NCBI GenBank assembly: GCA_963731595.1
Contig: CAVSWE010000003.1
Location: forward strand, 300,948 to 345,914
DNA from: an uncultured delta proteobacterium
GTDB taxonomy: Bacteria; Myxococcota_A; Polyangia; Polyangiales; Polyangiaceae
Length of the DNA: 44,967 nucleotides
Direction: 5' to 3'
In this document: piece after piece, positions 804 to 38,196 of the stretch
Numbering within the stretch: the first letter of the stretch is position 1
How the letters are laid out: each line of letters begins with the position of its first letter
Position numbers and translations under genes: made by a program
Notes under the pieces: generated by a model
Databases searched by the model: none
What the model saw: the letters and a program-made list of their open reading frames with translations, nothing else
What the model was told of the DNA's origin: nothing

Positions 804-942
804 CACTCGCCGACGGACCACGCGCTAGCTTCACGGGGCCTCGCCCGGATGACTGCAGCGGCCCGTGGACGGGCCGTTTCAGCCGGGACCGCGAGCCCGG
901 AAACGAGCACGGCGTCGACCACGCCGGGAAAGGAAGCGCACG

Positions 943-1750
943 ATGGAGCATAGCGGCCCGCTCATCGCCGGCGTCGGGCTCACCGACCCTGCCCGGCGCA
1001 GCCATTGGCCGGCGAGGCTGGACCTGGCGCAGAGCGCCTCGGGTCTCCTGCTCGCGCTTTTCATGTGGGCGCATATGGCCTTCGTCTCGTCGATCCTGCT
1101 TGGCAAGGACGTCATGTGGATGGTCACGAAATTCTTTGAAGGCTATTTTCTCTTCGGCCGGTCCTATCCGGGGCTTGTCTCGACCGTGGTCGCGCTGGTC
1201 ATCGCGCTCGTGGTAACGCACGCCATTCTGGCGCTGCGCAAATTCCCGATTAACTACCGTCAGTTCAGCACCTTTCGCGGCCATATGCGGATGCTGCGGC
1301 ACGAGGACACAACGCTTTGGTTCTGGCAGGTTGTCACTGGCTTCGCCCTGTTCTTTCTCGCCTCGGTGCACCTCTACATCATGCTTACCCGGCCCGACCG
1401 TATCGGGCCGTTCGAATCCGCCGACCGGGTGTGGAGCGACCATTTCTGGCCGCTGTATATCGTGCTACTGCTGACCGTCGAGGTGCACGGCGGGGTCGGC
1501 CTGTACCGGCTTGGCCGTAAAATGGGGTTGGTTCGCAGGCGGCGATGCGAACGCGGTGCGGCGTCGGCTCAAGCTCGCCAAATGGGCGCTGACGGCCTTC
1601 TTTCTGGTCCTTGGCGTGGCGACTCTGGCCGCCTATATCAAGATCGGCATCGAGCACCGTGACCACTATGGCGAGCACTACGTTCCCGCGGCGCAGCAAG
1701 CGTCGTCACCCCAACCCGCCGCTGGGGGCGCGGCGGGGAGCCCTCGGTGA
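943..1750 (+). CDS. frdC: Fumarate reductase/succinate dehydrogenase dihaem cytochrome b subunit (type B, Wolinella-like), with one apparent +1 frame disruption near 1510
   Basis: The ATG at 943 follows AGGAAG. The protein reads MEHSGPL...[13 protein letters not shown]...HGGVGLYRL, then the frame must shift (cttGgcc) to continue [11 protein letters not shown]...[12 protein letters not shown]. The stop overlaps the frdA GTG as GTGA at 1747-1750. Confidence 0.8.
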
Positions 1751-3765
1751 ACGTGATCTACACCGACGTGCTGGTGATCGGCGGTGGCCTCGCCGGGTTG
1801 CGGATCGGCATCGGTGCCAAACGCCGCGGCCAAGACGTGATCATCCTGTCGCTCGTCCCGCCCAAGCGCTCGCACTCTGCGGCGGCGCAAGGCGGCATGC
1901 AGGCGAGCCTGGGCAACGTCGTCAAGGCGATGGGTGACAACGAGGACGTGCATTTCGAAGACACCGTGCGGGGCAGCGACTGGGGCGCCGATCAGCGCGT
2001 CGTGCGCATGTTCGTCGACACGGCGCCCAAGGCCGTGCGCGAGCTTGCCGCGTGGGGCGTGCCGTGGAGCCGCGTGCAGAAAGGTGACCGGAAGGTGATC
2101 ATCAACGGGCAGAAGGTCACGATCACGGAGCGCGACGAAGCGCATGGACTGGTGATGCAACGCGACTTCGGTGGTACCAAGAAATGGCGCGCCTGCTACG
2201 TCTCCGACGGCACGGGTCACGCCATGCTGTACGCGATGAGCGACCAGGCAATCGCCCACGCGATCAGCGTGCACGAGCGCATGGAGGCCCTGGCGCTGAT
2301 CCACGACGGGTCGCGCTGCTATGGTGCGGTAGTACGCAACCTCGTGACCGGGAAATTGGTCGCGTACGTCGCCAAGGCTACCGCCATTGCGAGCGGCGGC
2401 GCGGGACGCCTCTATCGCGCGACGACCAACGCGGTCATCTGCGAGGGCATCGGCACGGCGCTGGCGTTGGAGACCGGCGTGGCAATGGTAGCCAACATGG
2501 AGGCGATCCAGTTTCACCCGACGGCAATCTTTCCGGCATGCATTCTGGTCACCGAAGGCTGCCGTGGGGACGGTGGATTGCTGCGCGACGCTGCGGGCAA
2601 GCGCTTCATGCCCGACTACGAGCCGGAGAAGAAGGAACTCGCCTCGCGCGACGTCGTATCCCGGCGCATGGAAGAGCACATCCGCAGGGGCGCGGGCGTG
2701 AAGTCACGGTTCGGCGAGCATCTGTGGCTCGACATCACCCTGCTCGGGGCCAAGCACATCGACAGCAACCTGCGCGAAGTGAAGGAGATCTGCCACTATT
2801 TCCTCGGCATCGATCCGATCAAGGATTGGATACCGGTGCGACCGGCACAGCATTACACGATGGGCGGGATCCGGACCGACCACACCGGCGGTAGCCCGAC
2901 GCTCAAAGGACTCTACGCCGCCGGCGAAGCCGCGTGCTGGGACCTGCACGGCTTTAACCGCCTGGGTGGAAACTCGGTCGCGGAAACCGTCGTCGGCGGC
3001 ATGATCGTGGGCGAGTTCATCGCCGATTTCTGTGCTCGTCCCGAGAGCAACCTGCAGTTCTCCACCGGCCTGATCCGCGAATTCCTGGAGCACGAGCAGG
3101 CCAAGCTCGACGCGCTCGCCGGTAACCGGGGCGGGGAAGAAGCCAACGCATTGCGGGTCCGAATGCAGGAGATCATGACGACCAAGGTCGGGATCTTCCG
3201 CACCGGCGGGGAGCTTGCCGCCGCGGTCGAGGAGCTGCAGTCGCTGCTGCGGCGCAGTCAGAACATCGGCCTGCGCTGCACCGCAAGTGGCGCAAATCCG
3301 GAGCTCGTTTCCGCCTACCGGGTCCAGAAGATGCTGCGGCTGGCGCTGTGCGTCGCCTACGGCGCGCTGACTCGGACCGAGAGCCGGGGCGCGCATTTTC
3401 GCCATGACTATCCGCGGCGCGACGACGCCGAATGGCTGAACCGCACGCTAGCAACGTGGAAGAGCGCCGACGACATGCTGCCGACGCTGGCACGCGAATC
3501 GCTTGACGTGATGCAGATGGAGCTGCCGCCGGGGTGGCGCGGATATGGGGCGAAGGACTACGTCGAGCATCCCGACACGGCGCGTCGTACCGCGGAGGTG
3601 GAGGCGATCAGGACCAGGCTCGTCAGTGCCGGCCGCGGGGTCGTACAGGAGGCCCTGATGCCGTACGCTGAGCTCATGCCCGAGCGCTTCCGCGGACCCA
3701 ACGAGCGCATCGATGAGCCGCTGCCACCGTCTCCCGCAGGCCCGCAACGACCGAGCCCGACATGA
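1747..3765 (+). CDS. frdA: Fumarate reductase/succinate dehydrogenase flavoprotein subunit
   Basis: An intact 672-aa ORF. It shows the FAD-binding N-terminus [22 protein letters not shown] (the covalent-FAD histidine context), and [18 protein letters not shown] near the C-terminal domain. Confidence 0.95.
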
Positions 3766-3822
3766 CCGGAGCCACCGCCATGGCCATCCCCGCCGGGGCC
3801 GCCTGAACGACCGCGGCGCAAG

Positions 3823-4536
3823 GTGCGGATTAGCGTCCTGCGCTACAACCCGCAGGAGCGCGGCAGTGTTCCCCGCATGCAGGCCTACGAACTCGAAGAG
3901 GCCGAGGGAATGACGCTGTTCATCGCGCTCAACGAAATCCGCGAAAAGCAGGACGCATCCCTGCAATTTGACTTCGTCTGCCGCGCCGGGATATGCGGCA
4001 GCTGCGGGATGCTGATCAATGGGCGCCCAGGGCTCGCCTGCCGTACGCTGACAAAGAACCTGGACCCGGAGATCACGCTGGCGCCCCTGCCGGTCTTCGA
4101 ATTGATCGCCGACCTTTCGGTGAACACCGGCAAGTGGATGCGGGCGATGAGCGAACGGCTGCAGACCTGGGTGCACATGCGCCAGAAAGAGGTGGACACT
4201 TCCCGGCTCGAGGAGCGCATGGAGCCGGAGCTGGCGCAGAAAATTTACGAACTTGATCGCTGCATTGAATGCGGGTGCTGCGTCGCCGGTTGTGGCACCG
4301 CGCGCATGCGCGAAGACTTTGTCGGCGCGGTCGGCCTGAACAAGATCGCCCGTTTCCGGCTCGACCCGCGCGACACGCGCACCGACGCAGACTTCTACGA
4401 ACTGGTCGGTGACGACAGCGGTGTATTCGGTTGCATGTCCTTGCTCGCTTGCCACGATGTCTGCCCGAAGGAGTTGCCGCTCGCAACGCAAATCGCCTTC
4501 ATGCGTCGCAAGATGGTGAGCATCGGTTGGAAATAG
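3823..4536 (+). CDS. frdB: Fumarate reductase/succinate dehydrogenase iron-sulfur subunit
   Basis: An intact 237-aa ORF with a GTG start. Cysteine motifs are CRAGICGSCGMLINGRPGLAC (2Fe-2S), CIECGCCVAGC and CMSLLACHDVCP (4Fe-4S/3Fe-4S). Confidence 0.93.
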   Translation: MRISVLRYNPQERGSVPRMQAYELEEAEGMTLFIALNEIREKQDASLQFDFVCRAGICGSCGMLINGRPGLACRTLTKNLDPEITLAPLPVFELIADLSVNTGKWMRAMSERLQTWVHMRQKEVDTSRLEERMEPELAQKIYELDRCIECGCCVAGCGTARMREDFVGAVGLNKIARFRLDPRDTRTDADFYELVGDDSGVFGCMSLLACHDVCPKELPLATQIAFMRRKMVSIGWK

Positions 4537-4568
4537 CAGCGTCTTTTTGCACCCTATGTGGAGGAGTC

Positions 4569-5575
4569 ATGAAGGTCGCAACGAAGTTTGCAACACTAAG
4601 TGTCGCACTGGCTAGTTTAGCGATTGCGTTCGGGGCACCCGCACAGCAGCCGATCATCATCAAGTTCAGCCACGTCGTTGCCGTCGACACGCCCAAGGGC
4701 AAGGGCGCGGAGAAATTCAAGCAGCTGGCCGAGGAGCGTACGAAGGGCCGGGTCAAGGTCGAGGTCTACCCGAACAGCACGCTGTACAAGGACGGCGAGG
4801 AAATCGACGCCCTGCAGCTGGGCTCGGTGCAGATGCTCGCCCCCTCGGTGGCCAAGTTCGGGCCGATGGGGGTGCGCGAATTCGAAGTCTTCGACCTGCC
4901 GTACATCTTTGACGACTTCGGCGAGCTGCACAAGGTCACCGAAGGCGCGGTTGGGAAACTGCTGTTCCAGAAACTCGATTCGAAGGGCATCGTCGGTCTT
5001 GCCTATTGGGACAACGGCTTCAAGGATTTCAGTGCCAACAAGCCGCTTAGGCTTCCCGGCGACGTCAGGGGTCTGAAGATGCGCATCCAGTCGTCGAAGG
5101 TGCTCGATGCCGAAATTCGTGCCCTCGGGGGGATTCCGCAGGTGATGGCCTTCTCCGAGGTGTATCAGGCGCTGCAGACCGGCGTGGTCGACGGCACCGA
5201 GAATCCACCGTCGAATTTCTATACCCAGAAGATGAACGAAGTGCAGAAGTATCTGACCCTGAGCGATCACGGCGTCATCGAATACGCGGTAATCGCGAAC
5301 AAGAAATTCTGGGATGGCTTGCCGGCGGATATCCGCACCATCCTCGAAGGCGCGATGAAGGATGCGACCAAATACGCCAACGACATCGCCAAGGAGGAGA
5401 ACGACAAGGCGCTCGCGGCGGTCAAGGCGACCGGGAAGACTGAAATCCTGACGCTCAGCCCCGATGCGAAGGCGGCCTGGAAAAAGGCGCTCTGCCGGTG
5501 CATCGAGAGATGGAAAGCCGGGTCGGCAAGGACATCATCCAGGAGGTCTACAAGGAAACCGGGTTCAAGCCCTGA
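4569..5575 (+). CDS. dctP: TRAP transporter C4-dicarboxylate-binding periplasmic protein DctP, with one apparent -1 frame disruption near 5491
   Basis: GGAGGA precedes the ATG at 4569. A signal peptide and a DctP-like body (IIIKFSHVVAVDTPKGKGAEKF...YWDNGFK) follow. After ...AKAAWKKAL the frame must change to read LPVHREMESRVGKDIIQEVYKETGFKP-stop at 5573-5575. Confidence 0.88.
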
Positions 5576-5624
5576 CCGAGCGTTGCAGCGCCTGATGCGC
5601 GAGCCGGGTTCGACGCAAACCGAC

Positions 5625-5652
5625 GCCGCTGCGGCCCGCAGCGGCTTTTTTG
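5625..5652 (+). terminator. Rho-independent terminator/attenuator between dctP and dctQ
   Basis: A 9-bp GC stem (GCCGCTGCG / CGCAGCGGC) with a 3-nt loop is followed directly by TTTTTT. Confidence 0.7.
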
Positions 5653-5694
5653 TGTGCAGCAGAACGGCGGTCGACCAACCGGGGACGCTTGCGC

Positions 5695-6306
5695 ATGCTG
5701 AAGCTCCTTGACCACCTCGAAGAGTGGCTCATCGCGCTGCTCATGGGCGGCGCGACGTTGATCATCTTCGTGGCCGTCGTTCACCGCTATGCCGCGGGCC
5801 TGCCCATCCCCGTGGTGCAGGACTGGCTGCTTGCGCTCAACCTGTCGTGGGCGCAGGAAGCATGCATCTACATGTTCGTATGGATGGCCAAGTTCGGTGC
5901 CGCTTACGGCGTGCGCACCGGCATCCACGTCGGCGTGGACGTGGTGATCAATCACCTGCCCGACGGCGTGCGCCGCAAGTTCATTCTTTTCGGACTGGGC
6001 GCCGGCGCGCTGTTCACCGGCGTGGTGGCCTCGTTCGGCGCCAGTTTCGTGTGGCAGCTCGCCCACACCGACCAGACCTCGCCCGACATGGAGCTGCCGA
6101 TGTGGCTGGTCTATCTGGCCATTCCCTGCGGCTCGGGGCTGATGTCCTTCCGCTTCCTCCAGGTGGCGTGGAACTTCTGGCGCACGGGCGAGCTGCCGCA
6201 TCACGACCCGACCGACGTGGCGGGCGTCGAAAAAATTGCCGACCAGGACGCCCACGTCGGCCTGGCGCAAGACAATCTTTTTCCCGCGCCGCCTGGCAAG
6301 CGCTGA
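5695..6306 (+). CDS. dctQ: TRAP transporter small permease DctQ
   Basis: Starts MLKLLDHLEEWLIALLMGGATLIIF and is a hydrophobic four-TM type protein. Its position between dctP and dctM fits. The ORF is intact. Confidence 0.85.
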   Translation: MLKLLDHLEEWLIALLMGGATLIIFVAVVHRYAAGLPIPVVQDWLLALNLSWAQEACIYMFVWMAKFGAAYGVRTGIHVGVDVVINHLPDGVRRKFILFGLGAGALFTGVVASFGASFVWQLAHTDQTSPDMELPMWLVYLAIPCGSGLMSFRFLQVAWNFWRTGELPHHDPTDVAGVEKIADQDAHVGLAQDNLFPAPPGKR

Positions 6307-6309
6307 GCC

Positions 6310-7605
6310 ATGACCTCCGCCATCATCTTCGGGCTGTTGATCGCGCTCATGCTCACCGGCATGCCCATCTCGATCGCGCTCGGGCTCACGGTCCTGACTT
6401 TCGTGTTCACCATGACCCAGGTGCCGATCGAATCGGTGGCCCTGAAGCTGTTCACCGGCATCGAGAAGTTCGAGATCATGGCCATCCCCTTCTTCATCCT
6501 CGCCGGCACTTTCCTCACCCATGGCGGGGTGGCGCGGCGGATGATCAATTTCGCCGCCTCCATGGTCGGCCATTGGCATGGAGGGCTGGCGCTCGCAGGC
6601 ATCATCGCCTGCGCGATGTTCGCGCTTGTATGCGGTTCGAGCGTCGCCACGGTGGTGGCCATCGGCTCCATCGTGCTGCCGGAGATGGTCAAGCGCGGCA
6701 TCCCCATGGACTTCGGCGCCGCCGTGATCACCGTCGCCGGTTCGCTCGGCATCCTGATGCTGCCGTCGATCCCCAAGGTCATCTACGCGATCGCCACCAA
6801 CACCTCGATCGGCGCGTTGTTTGTCGCCGGCCTGCTGCCGGGGATCCTGCTGACCACGATGCTCTGCCTGGTCACCTGGTATATCGCCAAGAAGCGCAAT
6901 TACCCGCGGCTGCCGCGCGAAAGCTGGGGCGCGCGCTTCAAGGCGTTCCGAGAGTCCGTCTGGGGCCTGATGCTCGTGGTCATCATCATCGGCGGCATCT
7001 ACTCGGGGATCTTCACCGCCACCGAGGCGGCCGCGATGGCCGCGGTGTACGCGTTCTTCGTGTCGGTGTTCGTGTACAAGGCCATGCCGCTCAAGGATTT
7101 GCGCAAGGTGCTGCTGACCTCGGCCAACATGAGCGCAATGCTGCTCTACATCATCACCAACGCGGCACTGTTCTCGTTCATCCTCACCAACGAGAACATT
7201 CCGCATGCCCTGGCGGACTGGATTATTGCCAAGGATCTGGGCTGGGTGGGGTTCCTGTTGCTGGCCAACGTGCTGTTGCTCCTGGCCGGCAATTTCATGG
7301 ACCCGTCCTCGGTCATTCTCATCATGGCGCCGATTCTCTACCCCGCGGCGATGACGCTCGGGATCAATCCGGTGCATCTCGGCATCCTGATCGACGTCAA
7401 CATGGAGGTCGGGCTCTGCCATCCCCCGGTGGGGCTCAATCTGTACGTGGCCTCGGGCATTTCGCGCCTCGGCATCACGCAGCTGACCAAGGCGCTGGTT
7501 CCCTGGCTCGTCACCATGCTGATCTTCCTGGTCATCGTCACCTATTGGCCGGCGCTGTCGACCTGGCTGCCGCAGAAGATGGGTATGATGGGGCCGTTGC
7601 CCTAG
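6310..7605 (+). CDS. dctM: TRAP transporter large permease DctM
   Basis: An intact 431-aa polytopic membrane ORF that starts 4 nt after the dctQ stop. It has a DctM-like sequence throughout. Confidence 0.92.
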   Translation: MTSAIIFGLLIALMLTGMPISIALGLTVLTFVFTMTQVPIESVALKLFTGIEKFEIMAIPFFILAGTFLTHGGVARRMINFAASMVGHWHGGLALAGIIACAMFALVCGSSVATVVAIGSIVLPEMVKRGIPMDFGAAVITVAGSLGILMLPSIPKVIYAIATNTSIGALFVAGLLPGILLTTMLCLVTWYIAKKRNYPRLPRESWGARFKAFRESVWGLMLVVIIIGGIYSGIFTATEAAAMAAVYAFFVSVFVYKAMPLKDLRKVLLTSANMSAMLLYIITNAALFSFILTNENIPHALADWIIAKDLGWVGFLLLANVLLLLAGNFMDPSSVILIMAPILYPAAMTLGINPVHLGILIDVNMEVGLCHPPVGLNLYVASGISRLGITQLTKALVPWLVTMLIFLVIVTYWPALSTWLPQKMGMMGPLP

Positions 7606-7701
7606 GTCCGGCGGGTCGAATCGACAAACGGCCGCTTTTCCGCGGCTATGTTACTCCGACCCACTTCGCAGATAAACTTCAGTTCTTTTGGCCCAACCAG
7701 T

Positions 7702-7953
7702 ATGCGGCTCGCAAAGTTCGTCAAGGTACGCGAGGAGAAATTTGGCGGCGTCCTCTTCGAGACGCGCTCGGAGAAGGTTTTTACGCTCAATCCAACGGCC
7801 ATGGCGGTCGTGCGCGAGATCGAAGCAGGCCATGACGAGCGCGAGATCGCCATGCGACTGAAGGCGCGCTTTAACGACAGTACCGACGTGATCGAGCGCG
7901 AAGTCGTCGCGTTCATCGCGGAGCTGCGGCAGAGAAGCCTTGTCGAGGGTTGA
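7702..7953 (+). CDS. PqqD/MftB-like peptide chaperone (RiPP recognition element protein)
   Basis: An 83-aa protein, MRLAKFVKVREEKFGGVLFETRSEKVFTLNPTAMAVVREIEAG... The R-E-x-FGgvL segment and overall size resemble the MftB RPExFGAL/PqqD family. Its end overlaps the next gene. Confidence 0.75.
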   Translation: MRLAKFVKVREEKFGGVLFETRSEKVFTLNPTAMAVVREIEAGHDEREIAMRLKARFNDSTDVIEREVVAFIAELRQRSLVEG

Positions 7954-8959
7954 GCGCGTGACAACATTGGCAACGGATAACGGACCCGACTCCGCGATCC
8001 CAGCGACGACCTCGACCTACGCCTGCTCGGAGGACCTCGCCGCGCCACTCTACGTGGCCTGGCAGATCACCAACGAATGCAACCTCGCCTGCCTGCACTG
8101 TATCGAGGAGAGCGGGCCGGGCAAGGCGTTCGCAGATGAGCTCGACGCGGCGCAGATATTCTCGGTGCTCGACCAGTTGCTGGACCACCAAGTCCCCTAC
8201 ATGTCCTTCTCGGGCGGCGAGCCTATGCTGCATCCGCAGTTCTTCGAGATGGTGGAGCACGTCTGCGCGCGTGGCGCCCAGCTCAAGATCGAGACCAACG
8301 GTCATTATCTGTCCGCCGAAAACTGTGCGCGGATGAAGGAACTCGGCGTCAAGGCGGTCCAGGTGAGCCTCGACGGCGCGTCCGCCAAGACGTTCGAGCG
8401 TATGCGCGTGCGCGGGAACTTCGATCGCACGCTCGATGGCCTGCGCAACCTTCGCGCGGCAGGCGTGCCCGTGGAGATTAACTTCTCGCCCGCCTGCTTC
8501 AACGTCCATGAGATCGGCGCGGTCGTCGACCTCGCATACAAGCTGGGCGCATACAGCTTCTACACCGGGACGCACGATGTACACCGGCAACGCCGTCAAG
8601 GCTTGGCGCCACCTGGAAGTTTCGGAGCCGAGCAATACGAGGCGTTCTTCGCTGTTCTGCGGCAAAAAGCCGAGGAGTACCACGGCCGCATGCGCGTCTA
8701 CTTTCACGAGGCGGGGTTGCTCGAGGAGCTGCGTTATCGCCTGCAGCACCCGGCTGCGCTGCTGATCGTGCTCCCGAACGGCCTGGTCAAGCTCATCAAC
8801 GCCTTGCCCTTCGTGTGCGGCGATTTTCGCCGCCAGACGCTGCGGGAAATCTGGGCGAATTTCCGCCGCGCCTGGCACGACCCGCGCGTGGCACAGTTCG
8901 TCGACGAGCTTGGCACCGACCCGGGCGGACACGGACGCTGCACCAATGGGTCTATCTTT
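7940..8959 (+). CDS. Radical SAM peptide-maturase-like protein, paralog 1 (MftC/PqqE-like N-terminal half, no SPASM cysteine cluster), frame-disrupted
   Basis: Motifs present: WQITNECNLACLHC (CxxxCxxC), FSGGEPMLHP, LKIETNG, VQVSLDGAS. Around 8568-8627 the paralog-conserved segment TGRTMYTGNAVKAWRHLEVS lies in another frame, implying two compensating shifts. The C-terminal LIVLPNGLVKLINALPFVCGDFRRQTLREIW is conserved. The true stop is uncertain: 8957-8959 if shifted at aatggg, otherwise the ORF runs to 9112. The start is TTG 7940 or GTG 7958. Confidence 0.75.
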
Positions 8960-9897
8960 GACTGCGCTGCCCGTGCGATCCGGCCGTTCGGCGCGCACGG
9001 CGCTGCACCGGCTGCTCGCCGTTTGCCGCCTGGTGCGCTACCGGTTTTTCCTATATGCCGGGCTGCTGCCGTATCTGCTCGGCGCGGCCTGGGCCTACGC
9101 TCGCGCTGGTAGCCTTCGACGCGCCGATTTTCTGGAGCGGCCTCGCGGGTGTAGTGCTCGCCGTAATCGGCGTCGAGGCATTCAACGAGTATTTCGATTC
9201 ACGCATGGGCACCGACCGCGTCTTCAACCCGGCCGAACTCCCGCCGATGTCTGACGCAGTGCTCTGGTTGGGCATTGCGGCCTTCGCCGGCGCGCTGGCG
9301 GTCGGCATCTACCTGACCGTGCGTGGCGGCTGGCCGATCCTGGCCTTCGCACTCCTGGGTGGAACGGCGGCGATCTTTTATGTGGCGCCCCCGATACGCT
9401 GGGCCTATCGTGGCCTGGGCGAACTGGTCATCGCCCTGTCCTACGGGCCCTGGATGGTACTGGGCAGCCTCTACCTGCAGAGCCAGGCGCTGTCGTGGGG
9501 GGCGCTCTTCGCGTCGCTCGTACCGGGATGCCTGATCATGGCGCTCGCGGTCGTCAACGCGATTCCCGATTACCACCAGGATCGCTTGGTCGGCAAGCGC
9601 AATCTCGTCGTGCGGCTCGGCCGCCGGCGCGCGGTTTGGCTGTATCTTGCCCTTGCGGCAGGCGGACTGCTGGTGGTGCCGGTCGGCGTAGCGAGCGGCA
9701 TCTCCCCGCCACCTGCCTGGCGGCCTTACTGGCGGTGCCGCTGCTCGTGGCCAGCGGCCGCTGCGCGCTGCGGCACTTATGAAACACCGCGCGCCTTTGT
9801 TCCCGCCGTGCGCAGCATCGTCGGCTGCTATCTGGTCGCCGTCGTGCTGTTCACCGCCGGCGTCCTGTGCAGTGGCGTAGCGTCCTTGCGCCCATGA
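8946..9897 (+). CDS. UbiA-superfamily (MenA-like) polyprenyltransferase, frame-disrupted
   Basis: First Asp-rich motif is AFNEYFDSRMGTD (NxxxDxxxxxxD form). Second motif is IPDYHQDRLVGKRNLVVRLG (MenA-like DxxxDxxxGKxxL). The protein is multi-TM and hydrophobic. Frame changes are needed near 9099, near 9700 and near 9775, where the alternate frame gives the hydrophobic LAALLAVPLLVASG. Its TGA overlaps the next ATG (ATGA at 9894-9897). Confidence 0.75.
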
Positions 9898-10856
9898 ACT
9901 GGATCGATCGCCTGCGCGCGCCGCTGTTCGTGTCCTGGCAGATCACGCGCGACTGCGACCTGTGCTGCCTGCATTGCTGCACCGAGTCGGCGCCGGGGAA
10001 GCGGTTGCCGGACGAACTCGACGCTGCCGAAGCGACGTGGCTGGCCGAGGAGATCGTCCGCAACGCAGTGCCCTACGTGATGCTTTGCGGCGGCGAGCCT
10101 TTGGTCGTGCCGCACTTTTTCGCCCTTGCCGAAGTCGCTGGGGCGGGCAGGCGTCCAGCTGAAGATCGAGACGAACGGGCAGCGCTTCGATGCCAAACTC
10201 GCCGCCCGGCTCGCCCGCCTGCCCGTCCGGTCGGTACAGATTAGCCTGGACGGCGACACACAGGAGGTCTACGAGCGCCAGCGGCCCGGGCGGCTTCGCT
10301 CGCCAAAGCCCATGCGGCCTGCCGCGCCGCTCGTGCGGCCGGGCTGCCGCTCGAAGTCACCTTTGCGCCGACCCGGCTCAACATTCACCAGGCCGGGCCG
10401 GTCATCGAGCGGGCGCGGGCGCTTGGTGCCTTTCGCTTCAATACCGGGCGGCTCATGCGCATCGGCACCGCCGCGCGGCTGTGGGAGAAGCTCGAGCCTT
10501 GCCGAGGAGCAATACCGGGAATTCCGCGCCTGTTGAACCGCATGGCCCGGCGCCTAGAGGGGCAACTGGAGATTTGCCATGCTCCGTTTGACCTCGCGGA
10601 AGGGCTGCGCGGCAGCCTCCAGAACGCCGCCGGCAACCCTGCTCGTGCTGCCCAACGGCTGGGTCAAGGTTGCCGCGGCACTGCCGCAGATCTGCGCTGA
10701 CTTGCGCCGCCATAGCCTTGACGGAGGCCTGGGAGGCCTACCGCAACGCGTGGCGGAGTGATACAGTGCTGGCGGAAGTACGGCGCGCGGTCGCCGATCC
10801 ATCGCGTCACGCGCGAGGCCAACAGTTGGCAGTTGTTGCCCGTCGCCCCGGTGTGA
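9894..10856 (+). pseudogene. Radical SAM peptide-maturase-like protein, paralog 2, needing about 6-7 frame changes to read
   Basis: Recognisable pieces lie in alternating frames: MNWIDRLRAPLFVSWQITRDCDLCCLHCCTESAPGK, LCGGEPLVVP, VQLKIETNGQRF, VQISLDGDTQEVYERQRPG, AAGLPLEVTFAPTRLNIHQAGPVIERARALGAFRFNTGRLMRIGTAARLWEKLEP, EEQYREFRA, LNRMARRLEGQLEICHAPFD, LLVLPNGWVKVAAALPQICADLRRHSLD, EAWEAYRNAWRSDTVLAEV. The stop is at 10854-10856 or 10859-10861. Confidence 0.7.
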
Positions 10857-10871
10857 CCTGACGGAGGGAAA

Positions 10872-11026
10872 ATGAGCGAGTTGAACCTGACGATCGAAGC
10901 CGCCAAGACCGGCGACGAACGCAAGACCGATACGGTGCAGCCGGCGCAAAAGCCGCATGGGAAACGCCCAAGCTCGAGGACGTGTCCGAGCAGGTGATGG
11001 CCCAACCGTATATCCGCTTCACCTGA
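10872..11026 (+). CDS. Candidate precursor peptide (PqqA/MftA-like), with one frame disruption in an A4 run
   Basis: GGAGGG sits 3-4 nt before the ATG at 10872. Frame 0 reads MSELNLTIEAAKTGDERKTDTVQPAQK, and after the aaaa run at 10948-10951 the -1 frame reads AAWETPKLEDVSEQVMAQPYIRFT-stop at 11024-11026. The second frame has no start codon of its own upstream. The gene lies between radical SAM paralogs 2 and 3. Confidence 0.6.
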
Positions 11027-11045
11027 GATACCCAGAACTTTCGCA

Positions 11046-12013
11046 ATGCCGGGGCGTTCGGTAGAAGAGTACCGAGCACCCCTTTTTCTTGCCTGGCAGC
11101 TGACCAACCGCTGCGCTGCGCGCTGCATCACCTGCTGCGAGGAATCCGGTCCCGATAAGGCATGGGGCGATGAGCTTTCCCGTGACGAGGCGATCGCGCT
11201 TGCACGGCGCATCGCGGCGTTCGGCATCGCCTACGTTGCCTTCGGCGGCGGCGAGCCGCTAGGTGTACCGCATTGCTGGGATCTGCTCGAGCTGCTCGCC
11301 GCGGCCGGCATCGCTCTTAAGATCGAGACCGACGGCAGTCACATCGACGCTTCCGCGGCCGATCGGCTCTCGGCGCTCGGCGTCGAGTGCATCCAAATTT
11401 CGGTCGACGGAGCGACAGCGGCGACGCATGAGCGCGTGCGTCCGGGATCGAGCTTCGCCGCGGCGGTCGCCGCCATCGAGCGACTGGTCGCGCGCGGTCG
11501 TGCACCGCAATTGGTGTTCGTTCCCACCCGCTTCAACTGCACGAGATCGTCGCCGCGTTCGATCTGGCGGCAACGCTCGGCTGCGGCGCATTCGTCACCG
11601 GCCCGCTGATGCGCATCGGCCGCGCCGCGGGCGCACTGGCAGCGCATCGCCTGCAGCAGACGAGGAGTGGCGCGCCGCGGTTACCGCGTTGAGAGAACGC
11701 ACCGCGTCGATGCGGCCCCGGAATGGCCCTTGTCGATCTATCCTTGGGACATTCGTTGCGGAGATGGAAACGCGGCTCGAGCGACCGCAGGCGATGCTGC
11801 TGGTCGTGCCCAACGGCAAGGTCAAGCTGCTCAATGCGCTCCCGTTCGCCGCCGCCGACCTGCGCCGCGATTCGCTCGAGGACGCGTGGCGGGCCTATCG
11901 CGACGCCTGGCATGCGCCGGAGGTGCGCGAATTCATCACCCGCTGCCGCAGCCAATCCAGCGCTGCTGATGCACGCCAATGAGACATGGCCGATGGTTAG
12001 GAACGACGGTTGA
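11046..12013 (+). pseudogene. Radical SAM peptide-maturase-like protein, paralog 3, needing about 5-6 frame changes to read
   Basis: Recognisable pieces: APLFLAWQLTNRCAARCITCCEESGPDK, FGGGEPLGVP, ALKIETDGSHI, IQISVDGATAATHERVRPGSSF, FVPTRFN then LHEIVAAFDLAATLGCGAFVTGPLMRIGRAAG, DEEWRAAVTALRER, EMETRLERPQAMLLVVPNGKVKLLNALPFAAADLRRDSLEDAWRAYRDAWHAPEVREFI. The C-terminus is either ...SAADARQ (stop at 11982) or NPALLMHANETWPMVRNDG (stop at 12013). Confidence 0.7.
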
Positions 12014-12112
12014 CCCCCGCGCCAGAAACCCCAATACTTAAGCGGCTGTGATTGAATACTTACCCGTCGTAGCGAAGCTTTTGAGGGCCCGGGAGCCCGC
12101 TGATCGGTTGCG

Positions 12113-12442
12113 ATGCATCGACTGACATTGGGACTACTCGCCGCCTGCACCGCTGGCGCAATCGCGGTTGCGGCCCAGCCAGCGCCGGACAGCTCCCGCG
12201 GCGAGCTCCTCTATTCCACCCATTGCATCGGTTGCCATAGCGCGCAGGTGCATTGGCGCGAAAAGAGGCTGGCGACAGACTGGGCAAGTCTCAGGATGCA
12301 AGTATTTCGATGGCAGATGAACACGGGCCTCGCCTGGAGCGACGAGGACATCGTCGCTGTCACCCGCTATCTGAACGATCTCTACTACCGTTTTCCGACG
12401 CCGGACAGGCCGGTGGCATTTCAGGGGTCGTCGGGTAACTGA
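12113..12442 (+). CDS. Small periplasmic monohaem cytochrome c
   Basis: An intact 109-aa ORF with a signal peptide (MHRLTLGLLAACTAGAIAVAAQP) and a single CIGCH haem-binding motif. Confidence 0.8.
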   Translation: MHRLTLGLLAACTAGAIAVAAQPAPDSSRGELLYSTHCIGCHSAQVHWREKRLATDWASLRMQVFRWQMNTGLAWSDEDIVAVTRYLNDLYYRFPTPDRPVAFQGSSGN

Positions 12443-12585
12443 TCCCGGGCTGCCGCGTCAAATCGATGTGAGTCGCTCGTTCTTTGCCGTCGACAAATGC
12501 TCTAGCTCGGGAGGCGCGCGCATACGACGGTCGAGTCCATCTCCCAGCGAGTGATCACTCGTGCCCCCAACGCGAGTGTACTGTT

Positions 12586-13095
12586 CTAGCTTGGCCGCCG
12601 CTGCAATAACGTGCCCAGGAGCAGAGCGAAGCCCAGGAAAATGACAAGCGACGCTTGCGCCAGAGTAAGTCCCAGGATCTTAAAGGACGTATCGGAACAG
12701 TCTCCCGTGGCATGCAGCAGTTGGGTCAGTACTTCGCTGACCGCCATGGTGTCCAGCATGTAGGCCAGGCCGGCACTGCAAGAGGCGACGCTTGGTGCCG
12801 GAAAAAGTTGCAGGTACGTCTGATAGCCGGCGACCCCGAGTCCTTCCAACGTCAGGATCGCAGCCATCCAAAGGAGAGCCCGCTGTACTCGACCTTGGGG
12901 CCGCGCCACGGCTGCGGCAAAGAAGACGGGTATCAGGCCAAGATACGTGAGCCGTTGGATGATGCACAAGGGGCACGGTTCGATCCCCAGTATGTGCTGG
13001 ACAAAAAAGCTTGCACCGACAAGACCGGTGCAGGTCACTCCAAGCAAGATCGAAACTTGGGCAGGAGAAGTCAGCACACGCGAAAGCCTATTCAC
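12586..13095 (-). CDS. dsbB: Disulfide bond formation protein B
   Basis: An intact 169-aa four-TM protein with CPLCIIQR in the first periplasmic loop and a second Cys pair region (SCSAG ... DCSD). Confidence 0.85.
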   Translation of the reverse strand: MNRLSRVLTSPAQVSILLGVTCTGLVGASFFVQHILGIEPCPLCIIQRLTYLGLIPVFFAAAVARPQGRVQRALLWMAAILTLEGLGVAGYQTYLQLFPAPSVASCSAGLAYMLDTMAVSEVLTQLLHATGDCSDTSFKILGLTLAQASLVIFLGFALLLGTLLQRRPS

Positions 13096-13511
13096 GGAAA
13101 TCGGCCGGCAATGCAGCTCCCCGCGGGACCCAGTACGCTAGGGGAATTTTGCCACGTCCGAGCCTGATCTCAGAAGTTTCTCCTCCGCAAAGGGCTGCTT
13201 CACCGCCCCAGGCCCGACGCGCGGAGCTTGGCCGCAATGGCTGGTGAATTTCGGCTTCACGACCCGGTGATCGCCCGGAGGCGCATCGCGAAATGCGCCT
13301 GGTCTGCGCCAAAGTGGCGCGAACGGCGCCTGGTTGACAGTCGGGGAATCGCCTGGCGGTTGCATGTTAAATCAATAACTTGCGACGCTTACCCTCTTAG
13401 TTGCGCATGAATTAGCGTCGTTGGAGTTTCCTTGAGGTACATCAACAGCCCAGATACGGCTTGGCTATAGGCTTCGTATTGCGGTGCAACAAAATCACGT
13501 CAGGAGCGCCC

Positions 13512-17076: not shown

Positions 17077-18478
17077 CAGATGATGCGCGAGTTGCGCGCC
17101 GCCCACGCTGCTCACGCAGGTAACGGTCGAATACCATCGCCACCGTGCGAACTAAGAGCCGACCGCGCGGCGTCACGTGGATCGCGTCCGATGCGATTTC
17201 GACCAACCCGTCGTCGGCCAGCGGTGCAAGTGACTTGAGCTCGGTTGCGAAGTAATCGCGGAACGCGATGGCGTACGCGCTCTCGACGCGCTCGAACGAG
17301 ACGGTGAATTGGCACATGAACGCGTGGATCACATCGCGCCGCAAAACGGTCGTCGGCAGAAAGCCGCCAGCCGCGAAAACATGGTAGCGCATCGTCGTCG
17401 AGCCGGGCGTAGTAATCATCCAGAGTACGCAGATTCTGGCTGTAGGACGCACCGACCTTGCCGATTGCGGAAATACCGAATGCCAAAAGATCGCAATCAG
17501 CGTGCGTCGAGTAGCCTTGAAAATTGCGGTGCAGCTTGCCTCACGCTGTGCGACAGCAAGCGCGTCGTCGGGCCGCGCGAAATGATCCATGCCGATGTAG
17601 ACGTAACCGGCGCCGGTCAACTTTTCGATTGCAAGCTCAAGAAGGGCTAACTTGGCCTCCGCCGACGGCAACTCCGCTTCGCTGATGCGCCGCTGCGGCT
17701 TAAACAGATGTGGCACGTGCGCATAGCTGTATAGCGCAAGTCTATCCGGCGCACCGTCGAGCACCTTGTCCAACGTGACGGCCGAAGCCGGCCAAAGTCT
17801 GCCGCGGGAGACCATAGATTAAGTCGATGTTTAAGGAGCGGAAGCCATTCGCACGTGCGGCGTCGAGTACAAATGCGAGTCTCGGCTTCCGATTGAATGC
17901 GGTTCACCGCCTGTTGTACGGCTGGGTCGAAGTCCTGTACGCCGATGCTCATCCGGTTGAAGCCAAGCTCCGAGAGAAGCTTAACCGTCCCGGCGACGCC
18001 AAATGGCGGGGGTCGACTTCGATCGAGCATTCGGCGTCAGGCACAAACGCAAAGCTGTCGTGTAGGACACGCCATAGCAACTGTCATTTCCTCGGCCGAC
18101 AGGAACGTCGGCGTGCCGCCGCCCCAGTGCAACTGTGTGACGGGGGACGCCGAATCGACGAGCCCCGACACGATTGCGACCTCCCTGCCGAGATAGTGGA
18201 TATATTTTGCGGAGCGGCCATGGTCCCGGGTCGTGACCTTGTTGCACGCGCAGTAGTAGCAGATGGTGTTGCAGAACGGCACGTGCACGTACAGCGACAG
18301 CGGCTGCGGCGCGCCGGCTCTGGCGGTTGACAAGCGCGTTAGCGAGATGGTCGGCGGTGAATGCTTCCGTAAAGCGATCTGCCGTCGGATAGGAGGTGTA
18401 GCGCGGCCCAAAGCCATCGTACTTGCGGATCAGATCCGAGTCGAACGGGAGGCCTGTAGTCGGCGTGCAGTGAACCAT
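17077..18478 (-). pseudogene. hemN: Oxygen-independent coproporphyrinogen III oxidase (radical SAM HemN), needing about 6 frame changes to read
   Basis: HemN-collinear pieces: FDSDLIRKYDGFGPRYTSYPTA; PLSLYVHVPFCNTICYYCACNK (CxxxCxxC); LHWGGGTPTFLS; [25 protein letters not shown]; [22 protein letters not shown]; GYVYIGMDHFARPDDALAVAQREA; GISAIGKVGASYSQNLRTLDDYY; RDVIHAFMCQF; GLVEIASDAIHVTPRGRLLVRTVAMVFDRYLREQ; the terminal ARNSRII-stop lies in a third frame. Confidence 0.85.
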
Positions 18479-18706: not shown

Positions 18707-19230
18707 TCAAAGTCCAGAGCGTCGGCAACCGAGGAGATTGGCACGCATCCAGACTGCGTGTTCACGTTCAGGCGGCATTTGCGGTCGCTCATCAACGACG
18801 TTGTAGGCGACTTCATAGTGCGCCACGCTGCGGTCATGGCTAAGCATCATGGCTTCGACAGGGGGCGGGACGACAGCGACTCCAACGTCGGCGCCAGCAA
18901 ACGCTTTGATAGCCCCCAAAGACTCCCACAGCGTTAGAGCGCGGATGCTTCCGTCGCCTTCACCGCCTGGATCCCCGACCGGATGCCCTCGGACAGCATC
19001 GCGGCAAACGGCGTCTCTCCAAACGGGGGCCCTCAGCGTCCAGGAAACGCGTGCCACAGATCCTCGCCAAAGTAGGCGAGAGAACTGTATTGGCTGGGCT
19101 GCAACGCGTCCGGCGGCAGCGAATTGGTCGCGGAGAGGCGGTACCATGCCAGCGTGGTTGCCAAACAGACTGCCACGGCGACCGCCATGGCGATTCGAGT
19201 GGCCGATTTGCGCGGGATCCGATTCGTCAT
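18707..19230 (-). pseudogene. ABM (antibiotic-biosynthesis-monooxygenase-like) domain protein, disrupted. Only the C-terminal half is confidently readable.
   Basis: GSIRALTLWESLGAIKAFAGADVGVAVVPPPVEAMMLSHDRSVAHYEV matches the conserved C-terminal half of small ABM-fold proteins. The upstream part lies in other frames and crosses a TGA at 19033-19035, so the N-terminus is unresolved. Confidence 0.4.
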
Positions 19231-19948
19231 CGCCGAATCCTCCTATCACCGTTGCGACACTGGTTGCATGTCGAAAACATACCGAGACGATCCGAGAATA
19301 TTATGGTCAGGACTACCGCGAAGCGTCTTGATCAAGGTCAACTAGGCGCGTCTTCGCCTAGCGGCGTTGACTGGCCTCGGCGTCCGGCTCGCTGTTGACT
19401 TTGGCACACCCCTTGCGGGTCGCTGACTTGGTAGGTGGCGGTTTACTACCGTGTGAGTTACCCCCGCTGACGCTGCTCGTTACATAGCGACGCCGGTGAC
19501 GCTCGCCGACCGCAATCGCCGGAATGCAAGGAGAGTGCAATCGGCATCACCGAAATCGACCACACGATCTACCTGTGCACGACCCGGTCGTGAAGATTGC
19601 GACGTTTTACCGCGATCGTTCAAGACGTCACAGACGTCGGCATCCGTTGGAGCGCCCTCGGCGGTCACCGTTGGTGCTTGTTACGTCGTCACAGCAACGG
19701 TGTGCCGGACTCCGCGAGTTGCCGGAACATCAACGCGATGTCGTCGTTTTTGCGCCAGCGACGGGATTGCGGCGCTGAAAGCCTATAAACTGCCCTGGTT
19801 CCAGTACGCGACGCGGAAGTCGTTATCGGTCGCAAACAGCGGGCGCACGCGGGACGAAATGCGGCCGGGAGGTGAAAATCCCGGCCGCGACACACGATGT
19901 CCCACGCTATCCGTTATGACGCTCGGCGAGGGGAGATTTGCATCGATC

Positions 19949-20554
19949 TTAAGACTTGCCGTATTGCGCCTTTGCGTTACTAACGCATGTATCCTTCGCG
20001 GAGCCCGCGAGTGCGTCGCACTTCTCGATCGCGACCTTGAAATCTGCGTCACGCTTGTCCGCGTTCGCCTCGTTGCGGGCGTTGGCCTGCTTCGTCGCCG
20101 CGTCCTGGTGCGTGTCGGCTGTGACACGGTCGACCTTGGCGTCGGCCTTACCCTTGACGAGAGCGGCATCCGCTTCCTTTACGCACACGTCCTTAGAATT
20201 GCCCGAAAGTTCGTCACATTTCTCCTTAGCAACGCTGTGGGTCGCTTCGGCCCGGGTAGCACGCGCATCCTCGCGCGCCGCCGGGGTGTTCTTGTACGCG
20301 GCTTCGGCGTCGGCCTTAGCAACCTTCTCCTTACCGTTGGCTTCCGCGAGGCAAATGTCCTTGGCGTTACCGCTTCGCGAAGAGCAGGCATCCTTGTCCA
20401 TCTTGCCTTGCGTCTCGGCGTTCTTAACCGCCATGTTGTAAGCATCCTTGGATATCGGCGTCGAATCGATCTTCGGGCCATTCATCTGCGCCGCGGCAGG
20501 TCCCGCTAAACCGAGGCTGCCAGCGACAAATAGTGCAATCATCGTCTTGGACAT
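19949..20554 (-). CDS. Secreted Ala/Lys/Asp-rich protein with three C-x4-G-x2-KD-x-C repeats
   Basis: An intact 201-aa ORF with AAGGAA upstream and a signal peptide (MSKTMIALFVAGSLGLAGPAAA). The repeats are CSSRSGNAKDIC, CDELSGNSKDVC and CDALAGSAKDTC. Confidence 0.7.
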   Translation of the reverse strand: MSKTMIALFVAGSLGLAGPAAAQMNGPKIDSTPISKDAYNMAVKNAETQGKMDKDACSSRSGNAKDICLAEANGKEKVAKADAEAAYKNTPAAREDARATRAEATHSVAKEKCDELSGNSKDVCVKEADAALVKGKADAKVDRVTADTHQDAATKQANARNEANADKRDADFKVAIEKCDALAGSAKDTCVSNAKAQYGKS

Positions 20555-20793
20555 GTTAGTTCCTTATGGTTCGATTATGGTGCCAGCAGCCTTGTCAAAG
20601 GCTAAAACGCCAAGGTTCCAATTCGTGCGGCTCGACGACCCTCAGTGTCAAACGAATCGACATAGGGACCCCTTAGCGAGAAGGATGCCTTTCCCCTCTG
20701 ATCTGAACGATAGGCGCGATACCCAATTGCGTCTGTGCGCCAGCGTACCCATTCCGTGCGGGATCCGCCGAGAGAGCAGGGTAAGTCCGTCGC

Positions 20794-21630
20794 TTAGCGC
20801 ACCGGGCCTTGCAGCTTGACCTCGTCGGTCCATACCTTGAAGCTGGTCAGTATATTGGGTCCGAACGTACTACTGATCGCGACGTCGCATGCGTCACGGC
20901 CGCGTGCAATGAGCACCCTTCCAATGCGCGGCATGTTGTTGCGGGGGTCGAAGGTGTACCAACGGCCATCGAGAAAGGCTTCGAACCAGGCAGCGAAATC
21001 CATCGGGCCGTACGGGGGCGGCACGCCAATGTCGCCGAGCTAGCCGGTGCAGTAGCGTGCAGGAATGTTCATGCATCGGCAAAAGGCGACTGCGAGGTGT
21101 GCATAGTCTCGACAGACCCCGGTTTTGTCGTAAAAAGCCTCGAATGCCGTGCGCGTCATGCGCGCATGCTCATAGCCAAATACGATATGTCGATGGACAT
21201 AATCGCAGATCGCTTGAACGCGACTCCATCCCGTTCGAATGTGCCCAAACAGATTCCACGCCGTCTCCGACAATCGGTCAGTTTCGCAATGCCGGCTTCC
21301 CAATAGGAACAGCAGCGTTTCCTCAGGGAGGTCTGCCACGGCTAGCTGTTGGGCCTGGGGAGCGATCACGTCCAGCGCCCCCGTATCGTTCACGATAGCA
21401 TTGGCCGACAGACACGTCCGACCCGTCGGCGCGACGATGCGGGTACACCAGTTGCCAAAGCTGTCCCGATAGGCTGCCATCGGTACCGGTGGGTTGACCA
21501 CCAAATCATCGCGGCCGATGAGATCGGAAACACGCGTGAAGTGGACGTTCAGGTTGAATACCATCGGAGTCGGCTTCGGGCACTCGTAGATCATTTCGAA
21601 CCCAACGCGTATTTGCAAAGTTGACCTCAA
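20794..21630 (-). pseudogene. Transglutaminase-like cysteine protease family protein interrupted by an in-frame TAG
   Basis: The two ORFs 21040-21630 and 20794-21024 are in the same frame. The read-through sequence is ...GVCRDYAHLAVAFCRCMNIPARYCTG-TAG-LGDIGVPPPYGPMDFAAWFEAFLDGRWYTFDPRNN. This is a transglutaminase core (catalytic Cys in GVCRDYAH, downstream His/Asp region) plus the N-terminal bacterial transglutaminase-N domain. Confidence 0.75.
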
Positions 21631-22056
21631 GCATGCGCAAATGAAAACGAGAAGCTTCTATTCCGAATCCACGGGTGGGCACTTGGGCGAACAATACTGG
21701 CGCCCTGCAGAACGTCTCGCGCTACCTACGCCGCTATGCGTAACGCGCGATGCAAAATTGCATTCCGGGACGGGCACTTGGGGAAGCGCCCCGTCACAGC
21801 CGACTCGCCGTCAACGCAACAAAAACCCGTGCGTGGAGCTTTATCCTCGAGGTGTCAATGGCCGCCGCCGTGGCCGGTAGAACGCCTTTCTAAGCATGGC
21901 TCATGCAATTTTTCTGCACGCGCACCAGTCGGCACGCATTCCCTGACTTACAACCTATATCGTCCAATGTAGTGACGCGTAGTGACGCCCGCGAGCGCCC
22001 ACTCCACTTCACCAGTTGAATTGCCGGCGCGCCCGGGCTCAAAGAAATGAGCGTAC

Positions 22057-22215: not shown

Positions 22216-22281
22216 GATTGATTTCCTCGTGTTATGCGTCCCACGTTCGTCAGACAACTGTCCAAGGCGTTGGATCCGTTT

Positions 22282-38188: not shown

Positions 38189-38196
38189 CCGCTTGT

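Follow-up and report, generated by a model that had tools for sequence, protein, structure and literature searches.

A 44,967-nt stretch of DNA from an uncultured member of the Polyangiaceae (assembly GCA_963731595.1, contig CAVSWE010000003.1, positions 300,948 to 345,914; hereafter the window) encodes a UbiA-superfamily, MenA/UBIAD1-like polyprenyltransferase (8946..9897 on the + strand, frame-corrected; 315 aa as reconstructed) in the middle of a gene cassette for peptide maturation. The gene, here termed ubiA, follows the genes for a PqqD-like chaperone and a radical S-adenosylmethionine (rSAM) enzyme, rSAM-1, and precedes a second rSAM gene (rSAM-2), a short precursor peptide gene and a third rSAM gene (rSAM-3). 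Together, these genes constitute an rSAM peptide-maturation system with a class of tailoring enzyme that is without precedent, and there is a substantial chance that they represent a new cofactor pathway. The product of the cassette is probably a molecule that derives from the peptide, is anchored by a lipid and has a link to respiration. An earlier note on this DNA, made from the sequence and its open reading frames (ORFs), had singled out the prenyltransferase as being embedded in, and translationally coupled to, a peptide-maturation operon. Its core observation is correct in substance and strongly reinforced by the comparative data, while its coordinates mask frameshifts in the window copy.

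Conservation of the cassette across genomes

A scan of species-representative genomes yielded 237 relatives, from which 80 loci were taken; metagenome loci were added (locus names run up to L167), and the counts given for the two cassette forms, main and sister, cover loci with enough flanking sequence. The gene order PqqD–rSAM–UbiA–rSAM–peptide–rSAM was found in 88 of 89 proteobacterial loci of the main clade. Titles of the genome records include Burkholderiales (Casimicrobiaceae, Usitatibacter, Caldimonas), Steroidobacteraceae, Acidocella, and metagenome-assembled genomes of Rhodopila. Among the carriers is a cultured organism, Rhodopila globiformis DSM 161 (L051). The lone exception, L037 (CAVTGS010000012.1), has neither rSAM-2, peptide gene nor rSAM-3 and gives a partial rSAM-1 match; at 6001–6933 and downstream, this locus may hold a truly degraded cassette or reflect an assembly problem.

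The reading frames on either side of ubiA interlock with it. In 66 of 78 loci the overlap between rSAM-1 and ubiA measures 16 nt, and in nine more it is 4 nt; a 4-nt overlap joins ubiA to rSAM-2 in 51 of 79. A sister clade, with UbiA proteins 40–48% identical to those of the main clade and source names including Planctomycetota, Phycisphaerales, Sedimentisphaerales and Omnitrophica, encodes a minimal version of the cassette: all 12 loci share the layout peptide–PqqD–one rSAM–UbiA, and a downstream rSAM gene is present in none of them.

Flanking genes differ from locus to locus, from which we conclude that the cassette behaves as a self-contained unit. When protease, transporter and hydroxylase genes were looked for among the locus neighbours, no universal accessory gene outside the cassette was found. 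The earlier note had held that ubiA is no stray quinone gene and had named co-occurrence with the rSAM paralogues in other genomes as a check. The outcome is decisive: the gene lies within the cassette in both clades (88/89 and 12/12 loci), orthologous clusters always contain it, and its product does not cluster with housekeeping MenA. Judged from gene order and overlaps, ubiA is an obligate and co-translated cassette member.

The precursor peptide

Every complete locus contains a precursor ORF of 30–52 aa, in which a variable leader precedes 22 nearly invariant C-terminal residues. The C-terminus ...LEDVS..VMAQPYIRFT is common to both clades; across them, W30, P33, E36 and P-Y-I-R-F-T are invariant, and D-V-S and V-M-A-Q are conserved to at least 90%. 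The core has no aromatic residues besides Tyr47 and Phe50. This conservation extends over loci ranging from 37% to 71% GC, and loci bearing titles of Alpha-, Beta- and Gammaproteobacteria have the core in common. This precursor, with its invariant core Tyr and Phe, was absent from the finding of the earlier note. A small co-encoded precursor with variable leader and conserved core is as expected of a ribosomally produced, post-translationally modified peptide (RiPP) system. In the protein collection, the peptide family amounts to 2706 clusters; the listed ones are termed 'hypothetical protein' or nameless, and none of the listed clusters carries a Pfam domain.

Homology of the peptide to PqqA was considered and rejected. 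The leader pattern W-x-x-P-x-L-x-D-V and the position of the Tyr resemble those of PqqA, yet hhalign comparison with PqqA sequences gave only a 10-column leader match with a probability of 12%, and the Pfam PqqA model matched one of 12 peptides, at E = 0.099. The likeness is not significant and is kept as a resemblance only.

A prenyltransferase branch beside MenA

The frame-corrected window protein scored 86.6 bits with the Pfam UbiA profile (PF01040; cutoff 34.2; E = 2.2e-24; profile positions 2–243 of 250), with MenA and UBIAD1 as its closest relatives, which supports the MenA-like identity assigned in the earlier note. Both Asp-rich motifs claimed there were recovered as well: FNEYFDSRMGTD (N-E-x-x-D-x-x-x-G-x-D) at 9181..9216 and IPDYHQDRLVGKRNLVVRLG (D-x-x-x-D-x-x-x-G-K-x-N) at 9562..9621, each on the + strand. 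Across both clades, at only 41–47% identity, N, E, Y, F, D and G of motif 1 are invariant and its last D is conserved to at least 90%; motif 2 has P, D, Q, D, G, K and N as its invariant positions. Many pocket residues are invariant across clades too. Regarding topology, the AlphaFold2 model built for P0004, a homologue sharing 85% identity with the reconstructed window protein, predicts an all-helical protein with about nine long helices (predicted local distance difference test score 83.8; predicted template modelling score 0.82), consistent with the polytopic protein described earlier. The top fold matches of this model were UBIAD1 (template modelling scores 0.67/0.74), followed by digeranylgeranylglyceryl phosphate (DGGGP) synthase and the archaeal homologues ApUbiA and AfUbiA. 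By profile score above the cutoff, two Asp-rich motifs and a predicted polytopic helical fold, the cassette enzyme belongs to the UbiA superfamily.

Within the superfamily, the best NCBIfam matches of cassette UbiA proteins were all MenA models, at no more than 113 bits (NF004751: 113 vs. a cutoff of 264). Chlorophyll synthase (33–42 bits), DGGGP synthase (26–31 bits), UbiA (~15 bits) and MqnP (~14 bits) models scored lower, and none of the haem O synthase models in NCBIfam gave a match. Every curated MenA cutoff was failed. For instance, TIGR00751 (cutoff 102.15) returned 65–76 bits for cassette proteins of both clades (73.8 for the window protein, 65.3 for L002, 72.5 for P0140 and 76.1 for P0136), vs. 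102–135 bits for six of eight tested next neighbours outside the clade. These eight are 28–38% identical to cassette UbiA; for proteins that pass the model, the identity is 33–39%. The only sequence match in the PDB was UBIAD1 (8djk; 30 bits), and homologues are annotated at source as 1,4-dihydroxy-2-naphthoate (DHNA) octaprenyltransferase. With MenA models as best matches, failure at the MenA cutoffs and motifs that are invariant or nearly so across clades, the cassette UbiA forms a distinct branch next to MenA and is probably catalytically competent. We consider it very likely that the enzyme is dedicated to the cassette pathway rather than being a housekeeping MenA.

Radical SAM enzymes and chaperone

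All three rSAM paralogues keep the CX3CX2C motif (57–77 sequences), and each possesses a conserved C-terminal domain of ~100 residues resembling that of the other paralogues. The C-terminal 100 residues hold just one or two conserved Cys in each paralogue and in the single sister-clade rSAM; there is therefore no SPASM/twitch cluster motif, and no Pfam match to the SPASM domain was obtained. For rSAM-1, the best NCBIfam matches were NirJ2 and AhbD; for rSAM-2 and rSAM-3, MftC came out best. These scores lay at 112–122 bits vs. cutoffs of 265–500, and the best PDB sequence matches were SkfB (75 bits) and PqqE (46 bits). On chaperone homologues, the PqqD family PF05402 is recorded, and the chaperone matches NCBIfam models for PqqD-family proteins of lasso-peptide, pyrroloquinoline quinone (PQQ) and mycofactocin systems, without reaching any of their cutoffs. 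A PqqD-family protein adjoining an rSAM enzyme with intact CX3CX2C corresponds to the arrangement of rSAM systems that depend on a RiPP recognition element (RRE). Membership in MenA, PqqE, MftC, NirJ/AhbD or other curated rSAM families was rejected, with scores far under the cutoffs.

The window copy and its frameshifts

The window ubiA is a real gene, but an interrupted copy. Stops at 9252 and 9780 break the frame of the ATG at 8946, both Asp-rich motifs sit in the +1 frame relative to this ATG, and the ORF listing for the region holds just 8910–9254 and 9055–9897. The two stops rule out a single ORF from 8946 to 9897; the earlier note had presented the region as one continuous gene, splicing frames without saying so. 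Relative to three intact cassettes and the closest relative (L005), the window ubiA bears 1-nt indels at ~9111, 9702–9710 and 9771, along with a compensating indel pair at 9868/9885. At least three corrections of 1-nt indels are needed to obtain the 315-aa protein, which is 80–87% identical to intact 316-aa homologues at 97–100% length coverage. At the 3′ end, the sequence ATGA (9894–9897) fuses the ubiA stop with the rSAM-2 start, exactly as read before. The claim for the other junction, that the ubiA ATG lies at the end of rSAM-1, stood in part: the ATG at 8946 exists, but the junction holds only once a 1-nt deletion at ~8925 is mended, which sets the rSAM-1 stop at 8959–8961 and gives a 16-nt overlap with ubiA. 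Uncorrected, the rSAM-1 ORF extends to 9112. No other UbiA-family gene was found within the window.

The remaining cassette genes share the + strand with ubiA. The gene for the PqqD-like peptide chaperone (RRE domain; 7702..7953), contained in an ORF of 7648–7953 with the homologous start MRLAKF at 7702, is intact and the sole uninterrupted cassette gene. rSAM-1 (7958..8961) begins with a GTG 5 nt past the pqqD stop, encodes CX3CX2C at 8078–8101 and no SPASM Cys motif, matches Pfam Radical_SAM (E = 2.9e-25), has AhbD, NirJ2 and MftC as its best NCBIfam matches (113–125 bits, far under their cutoffs), and contains indels at ~8567, 8627 (2 nt) and ~8925. rSAM-2 (9894..10856; CX3CX2C at 9954–9977), whose start overlaps the ubiA stop, and rSAM-3 (11046..12013; CX3CX2C at 11112–11135) contain ~8 and ~7 indels, respectively. 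Between them lies the precursor peptide gene (10872..11026; ~51 aa), with a product ending in ...WETPKLEDVSEQVMAQPYIRFT (QVMAQPYIRFT at 10991–11023); a 1-nt deletion at ~10954 spreads this gene over two frames.

Two comparisons delimit the affected region. Alignment of window 7640–12100 with three intact homologous cassettes revealed ~24 private indels of 1–2 nt. L005, which is syntenic and 88% identical in DNA across window 2957–13170, differs by ~27 frameshifting indels, all within a contiguous 3.4-kb block (8567–11952): three in rSAM-1, ~5 in ubiA, eight in rSAM-2, one in the peptide gene and seven in rSAM-3. The same comparison detected no indels in sdhA, sdhB, dctM, pqqD, the cytochrome c gene or dsbB. 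As it stands, the window copy is not translatable into full-length protein and is unsuited to experiment.

Such a block raises the question of whether the cassette in this genome is a dead, decaying pseudogene cluster without host function. This reading would agree with the ~27 frameshifts in 8567–11952 vs. none in the flanking genes compared with L005, with the interruption of all cassette genes but pqqD, and with the related locus L037, whose missing downstream half indicates that cassette loss does happen. It fits poorly with the ratio of nonsynonymous to synonymous substitution rates (dN/dS) relative to L005, which is 0.09–0.18 for cassette genes and 0.08 for dctM, and with the presence of a single stop codon, in ubiA, when the block is read in the L005 frame. 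Bacterial pseudogenes show deletion bias, whereas the indels here are all of 1–2 nt, comprise more insertions than deletions (~20 to 8) and often fall outside homopolymers. The block begins ~600 nt into rSAM-1 and leaves pqqD untouched, so it does not track a functional unit. Outside the cassette, hemN (17099–18433, − strand), encoding the oxygen-independent coproporphyrinogen oxidase, is divided over three reading frames and sdhC (+ strand) has a 1-nt insertion at ~1508 relative to L001, which indicates patchy sequence error. Because of the low dN/dS, the types of indels and the mismatch between block and gene boundaries, an old pseudogene is unlikely; most likely, the block stems from errors in the local sequence or assembly, or at most from decay of very recent date, and we hold a dead cluster in this genome to be doubtful. 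Programmed frameshifting was also considered and rejected: the ~27 random 1–2 nt indels have no counterpart in the three intact cassettes or L005, and homologous loci have uninterrupted genes.

Neighbouring genes and the respiratory link

In the sister-clade loci L088, L090, L092, L093 and L107, a polyprenyl synthetase gene comes directly after ubiA, overlapping it or separated by a few bases, and in L129 a SAM methyltransferase gene overlaps the ubiA 3′ end. Together with the polyprenyl synthetase, a two-component system often follows the minimal sister-clade cassette. Genes for respiratory complexes recur nearby: nqrA–F lie directly upstream of the cassette on the same strand in L165 (947–8867), nqr genes are likewise located upstream on the same strand in L093 (417–7868) and L107, and L166 has Rnf and NuoEF-like genes upstream. 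NqrF-like genes adjoin the cassette in L086 and L146, and nuoA/nuoB in L085.

Among main-clade loci, 15 have sdh genes, arranged as a three-gene operon, beside the cassette, as does this window, and 12 have a NapC/NirT quinol dehydrogenase gene there. The membrane part of the sdh product consists of one large cytochrome b, a feature that we take to mark a type-B succinate:quinone oxidoreductase (SQR). Further neighbours include hemN and genes for universal stress proteins, pyruvate:ferredoxin oxidoreductase and c-type cytochromes; in L001, pyruvate:ferredoxin oxidoreductase genes were seen near the cassette and sdh. Quinone-handling or low-oxygen functions are thus recurrent, though not universal, neighbours of the cassette in independent lineages.

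Proposed pathway and alternative explanations

From the gene content we infer the following pathway. The PqqD-like chaperone would bind the leader of the ~50-aa precursor, probably at the conserved W-x-x-P-x-L-E-D-V, and the core VMAQPYIRFT would be modified by one rSAM enzyme in minimal systems and by three paralogues in the proteobacterial form. UbiA would then move a polyprenyl group from polyprenyl diphosphate onto the modified aromatic ring or a released fragment, with the Tyr as the obvious candidate acceptor residue; release of a fragment would use a protease encoded elsewhere. No cassette component has a signal peptide, and the active sites of UbiA-superfamily enzymes face the cytoplasm, so the chemistry is expected at the membrane's inner face. 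Prenylation would fix the product in the cytoplasmic membrane, where it may serve as a quinone-like or other redox lipid with respiratory complexes.

These steps differ in how firmly we hold them. That the enzyme is a dedicated polyprenyltransferase acting on an rSAM-modified, peptide-derived aromatic seems reasonably probable to us, and for the acceptor itself we lean slightly towards an origin from the peptide. The proposal of the earlier note, an aromatic peptide residue or a small aromatic released from it as acceptor, is plausible. A role of the product as a respiratory redox cofactor is suggested tentatively. In view of peptide invariance, polyprenyl synthase and methyltransferase partners, and respiratory neighbours, the most attractive candidate product is a quinone-like redox lipid; the data agree equally well with a lipid-anchored peptide that partners a respiratory complex. 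In its most far-reaching form, which we put forward as a speculative possibility, the pathway would give rise to a new class of membrane redox cofactor, with a head group cut or built from the Tyr-containing peptide C-terminus by oxygen-independent rSAM chemistry and subsequently fitted with a polyprenyl tail. Such a cofactor would be a peptide-derived isoprenoid quinone or quinone-like lipid for Nqr/Rnf, type-B SQR and NapC/NirT in Proteobacteria, Planctomycetota and other phyla.

Several observations weigh against a peptide-directed prenyltransferase with a respiratory product. The tie between peptide and prenyltransferase rests on co-occurrence in sequenced loci, which cannot name the acceptor. 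The cassette contains no protease, hydroxylase or transporter, and hence it is not obvious how a free quinone head group would be obtained from the peptide. Its rSAM enzymes are devoid of the SPASM auxiliary-cluster Cys typical of characterised peptide-modifying relatives, the links to neighbouring genes are not universal (sdh in 15 and NapC/NirT in 12 of the genome-derived loci analysed), and in the window ubiA and its partner genes are frameshifted. Some of these points would suit a UbiA that acts on a small non-peptide aromatic or another acceptor while the peptide/rSAM arm has another task within that process, e.g. with the rSAM enzymes tailoring the prenylated lipid or the modified peptide serving as partner or assembly factor of a respiratory complex. 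To our knowledge, the UbiA-superfamily enzymes characterised so far (UbiA, MenA, UBIAD1, chlorophyll synthase, DGGGP synthase, haem O synthase) use small-molecule acceptors, in line with this alternative, and a cassette that has no protease to free a head group and rSAM enzymes without SPASM clusters fits it too. However, the PqqD/RRE chaperone and the invariant core argue for rSAM action on the peptide, and the minimal four-gene form leaves no other enzyme to make an acceptor; we regard a non-peptide acceptor as unlikely.

Two further explanations concern the enzyme itself. An ordinary housekeeping MenA, that is, a DHNA polyprenyltransferase merely situated among rSAM genes, would account for the MenA models heading the NCBIfam matches, for the source annotation and for UBIAD1 as the closest solved structure. 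It would leave unexplained why the protein scores below all curated MenA cutoffs when next neighbours outside the clade pass TIGR00751, and why it is embedded with overlapping frames in the cassette at flanked loci of two deeply diverged clades. Gene tables and annotated ORFs of the loci examined hold no men or mqn genes, and Burkholderiales are ubiquinone organisms. Overall, a housekeeping MenA is highly improbable. Very little likewise speaks for a non-catalytic UbiA-like protein that only anchors the rSAM/PqqD complex to the membrane: a Glu occupies the second position of motif 1, where Asp is usual (N-E-x-x-D), but UBIAD1 also has no Asp there. The invariance of metal/diphosphate motifs and many pocket residues across clades and the polyprenyl synthetase directly after ubiA in several loci contradict a mere anchor, and we consider this explanation very improbable.

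Other genes in the window

Upstream of the cassette, the window carries sdhCAB (865–4536, +), encoding a large cytochrome b subunit, a 672-aa flavoprotein and an iron–sulfur subunit, and a tripartite ATP-independent periplasmic (TRAP) transporter (4431–7605). Directly after rSAM-3 lies a gene for a small c-type cytochrome with a CIGCH motif (12113–12442, +), and a DsbB-like gene, read from the sequence alone, is located at 12586–13095 (−); both are conserved in L005.

GC content drops from ~0.65 to ~0.57 in window 19000–30000, where long ORFs are sparse. A 467-aa protein encoded at 25464–26867 (−) contains four beta/gamma-crystallin domains (Pfam Crystall, E = 2e-59). Window 30766–43176 encodes ChaN-type haem-binding, Sel1-repeat, patatin-like phospholipase and HTH_38 proteins and a sulfatase (ORFs at 30766–31944 (+), 32894–34516 (+), 36838–38031 (−), 39864–40811 (+) and 42397–43176 (+)); for the sulfatase, the Pfam match covers the C-terminal part of the model only, and the remainder may lie in another frame. 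Rfam and tRNA scans gave no match anywhere in the window.

Relation to known systems and implications

With MenA and UBIAD1, the cassette enzyme shares the fold, the two Asp-rich motifs and its best sequence and fold matches, and in some loci a polyprenyl synthase and a methyltransferase are paired with it as in quinone pathways. It differs from them in its sub-cutoff scores, in its location within a PqqD/rSAM/peptide cassette and in not being seen with men or mqn genes. PQQ biosynthesis (PqqA, PqqD, PqqE) likewise has a small precursor in which a Tyr close to the C-terminus is invariant, along with a chaperone of the PqqD family and a related rSAM enzyme; a further parallel is the extreme conservation of the core, typical of a cofactor rather than an antibiotic. 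In contrast to PqqA, however, the peptide has Met-Ala-Gln-Pro-Tyr in place of E-x3-Y; PqqB and PqqC are absent from the cassette, its rSAM enzymes reach 50–78 bits with the PqqE model (cutoff 381) and have no SPASM Cys, and PQQ is soluble and unprenylated.

Mycofactocin follows the same logic, as a redox cofactor that is derived from a peptide and based on Tyr; rSAM-2 and rSAM-3 have MftC as their top NCBIfam match (112–116 bits), and MftB is among the chaperone matches. Yet the MftC cutoff of 265 is not reached, the peptide ends in Y-I-R-F-T instead of Gly-Val-Tyr, there is no MftD, MftE or MftF, and a membrane prenyltransferase takes the place of the glycosyltransferase. Isoprenoids are put on aromatic residues of ribosomal peptides by cyanobactin F-type prenyltransferases and in the ComX/ComQ system, but those are soluble ABBA-type or polyprenyl-synthase-like enzymes with short donors, unlike the polytopic UbiA-type enzyme here. 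Since the defining features of the MenA, PQQ, mycofactocin and SPASM families were tested and not found, the cassette falls outside them; by analogy, it works like a cross of PQQ/mycofactocin biosynthesis and the prenylation step of quinone biosynthesis.

The peptide is covered by no family in NCBIfam or Pfam, and none of their families places the enzymes in this cassette; in the full-text collection searched, which leaves most subscription journals outside, no paper was found on a UbiA-type enzyme in a PqqD/rSAM peptide cluster. One candidate paper, on a second pqqADE copy in Hyphomicrobium, proved unrelated to the cassette.

As peptide-derived cofactors, PQQ and mycofactocin are soluble; small molecules of chorismate origin give rise to the respiratory quinones; and prenylated ribosomal peptides receive their isoprenoid from soluble prenyltransferases. 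The presence of a UbiA-type membrane polyprenyltransferase in a PqqD/rSAM peptide cassette joins these fields of peptide cofactors, quinones and prenylated peptides. A near-invariant core, source names from several phyla, thousands of metagenome representatives and respiratory neighbours point to a system of the housekeeping type which annotation has missed. Since one carrier, Rhodopila globiformis DSM 161, is in culture, the pathway idea is open to direct testing. If the product is a lipid-anchored redox molecule, the cassette would provide a new, probably oxygen-independent route to a membrane electron carrier, and the acceptors known for the UbiA superfamily would cover a wider range.

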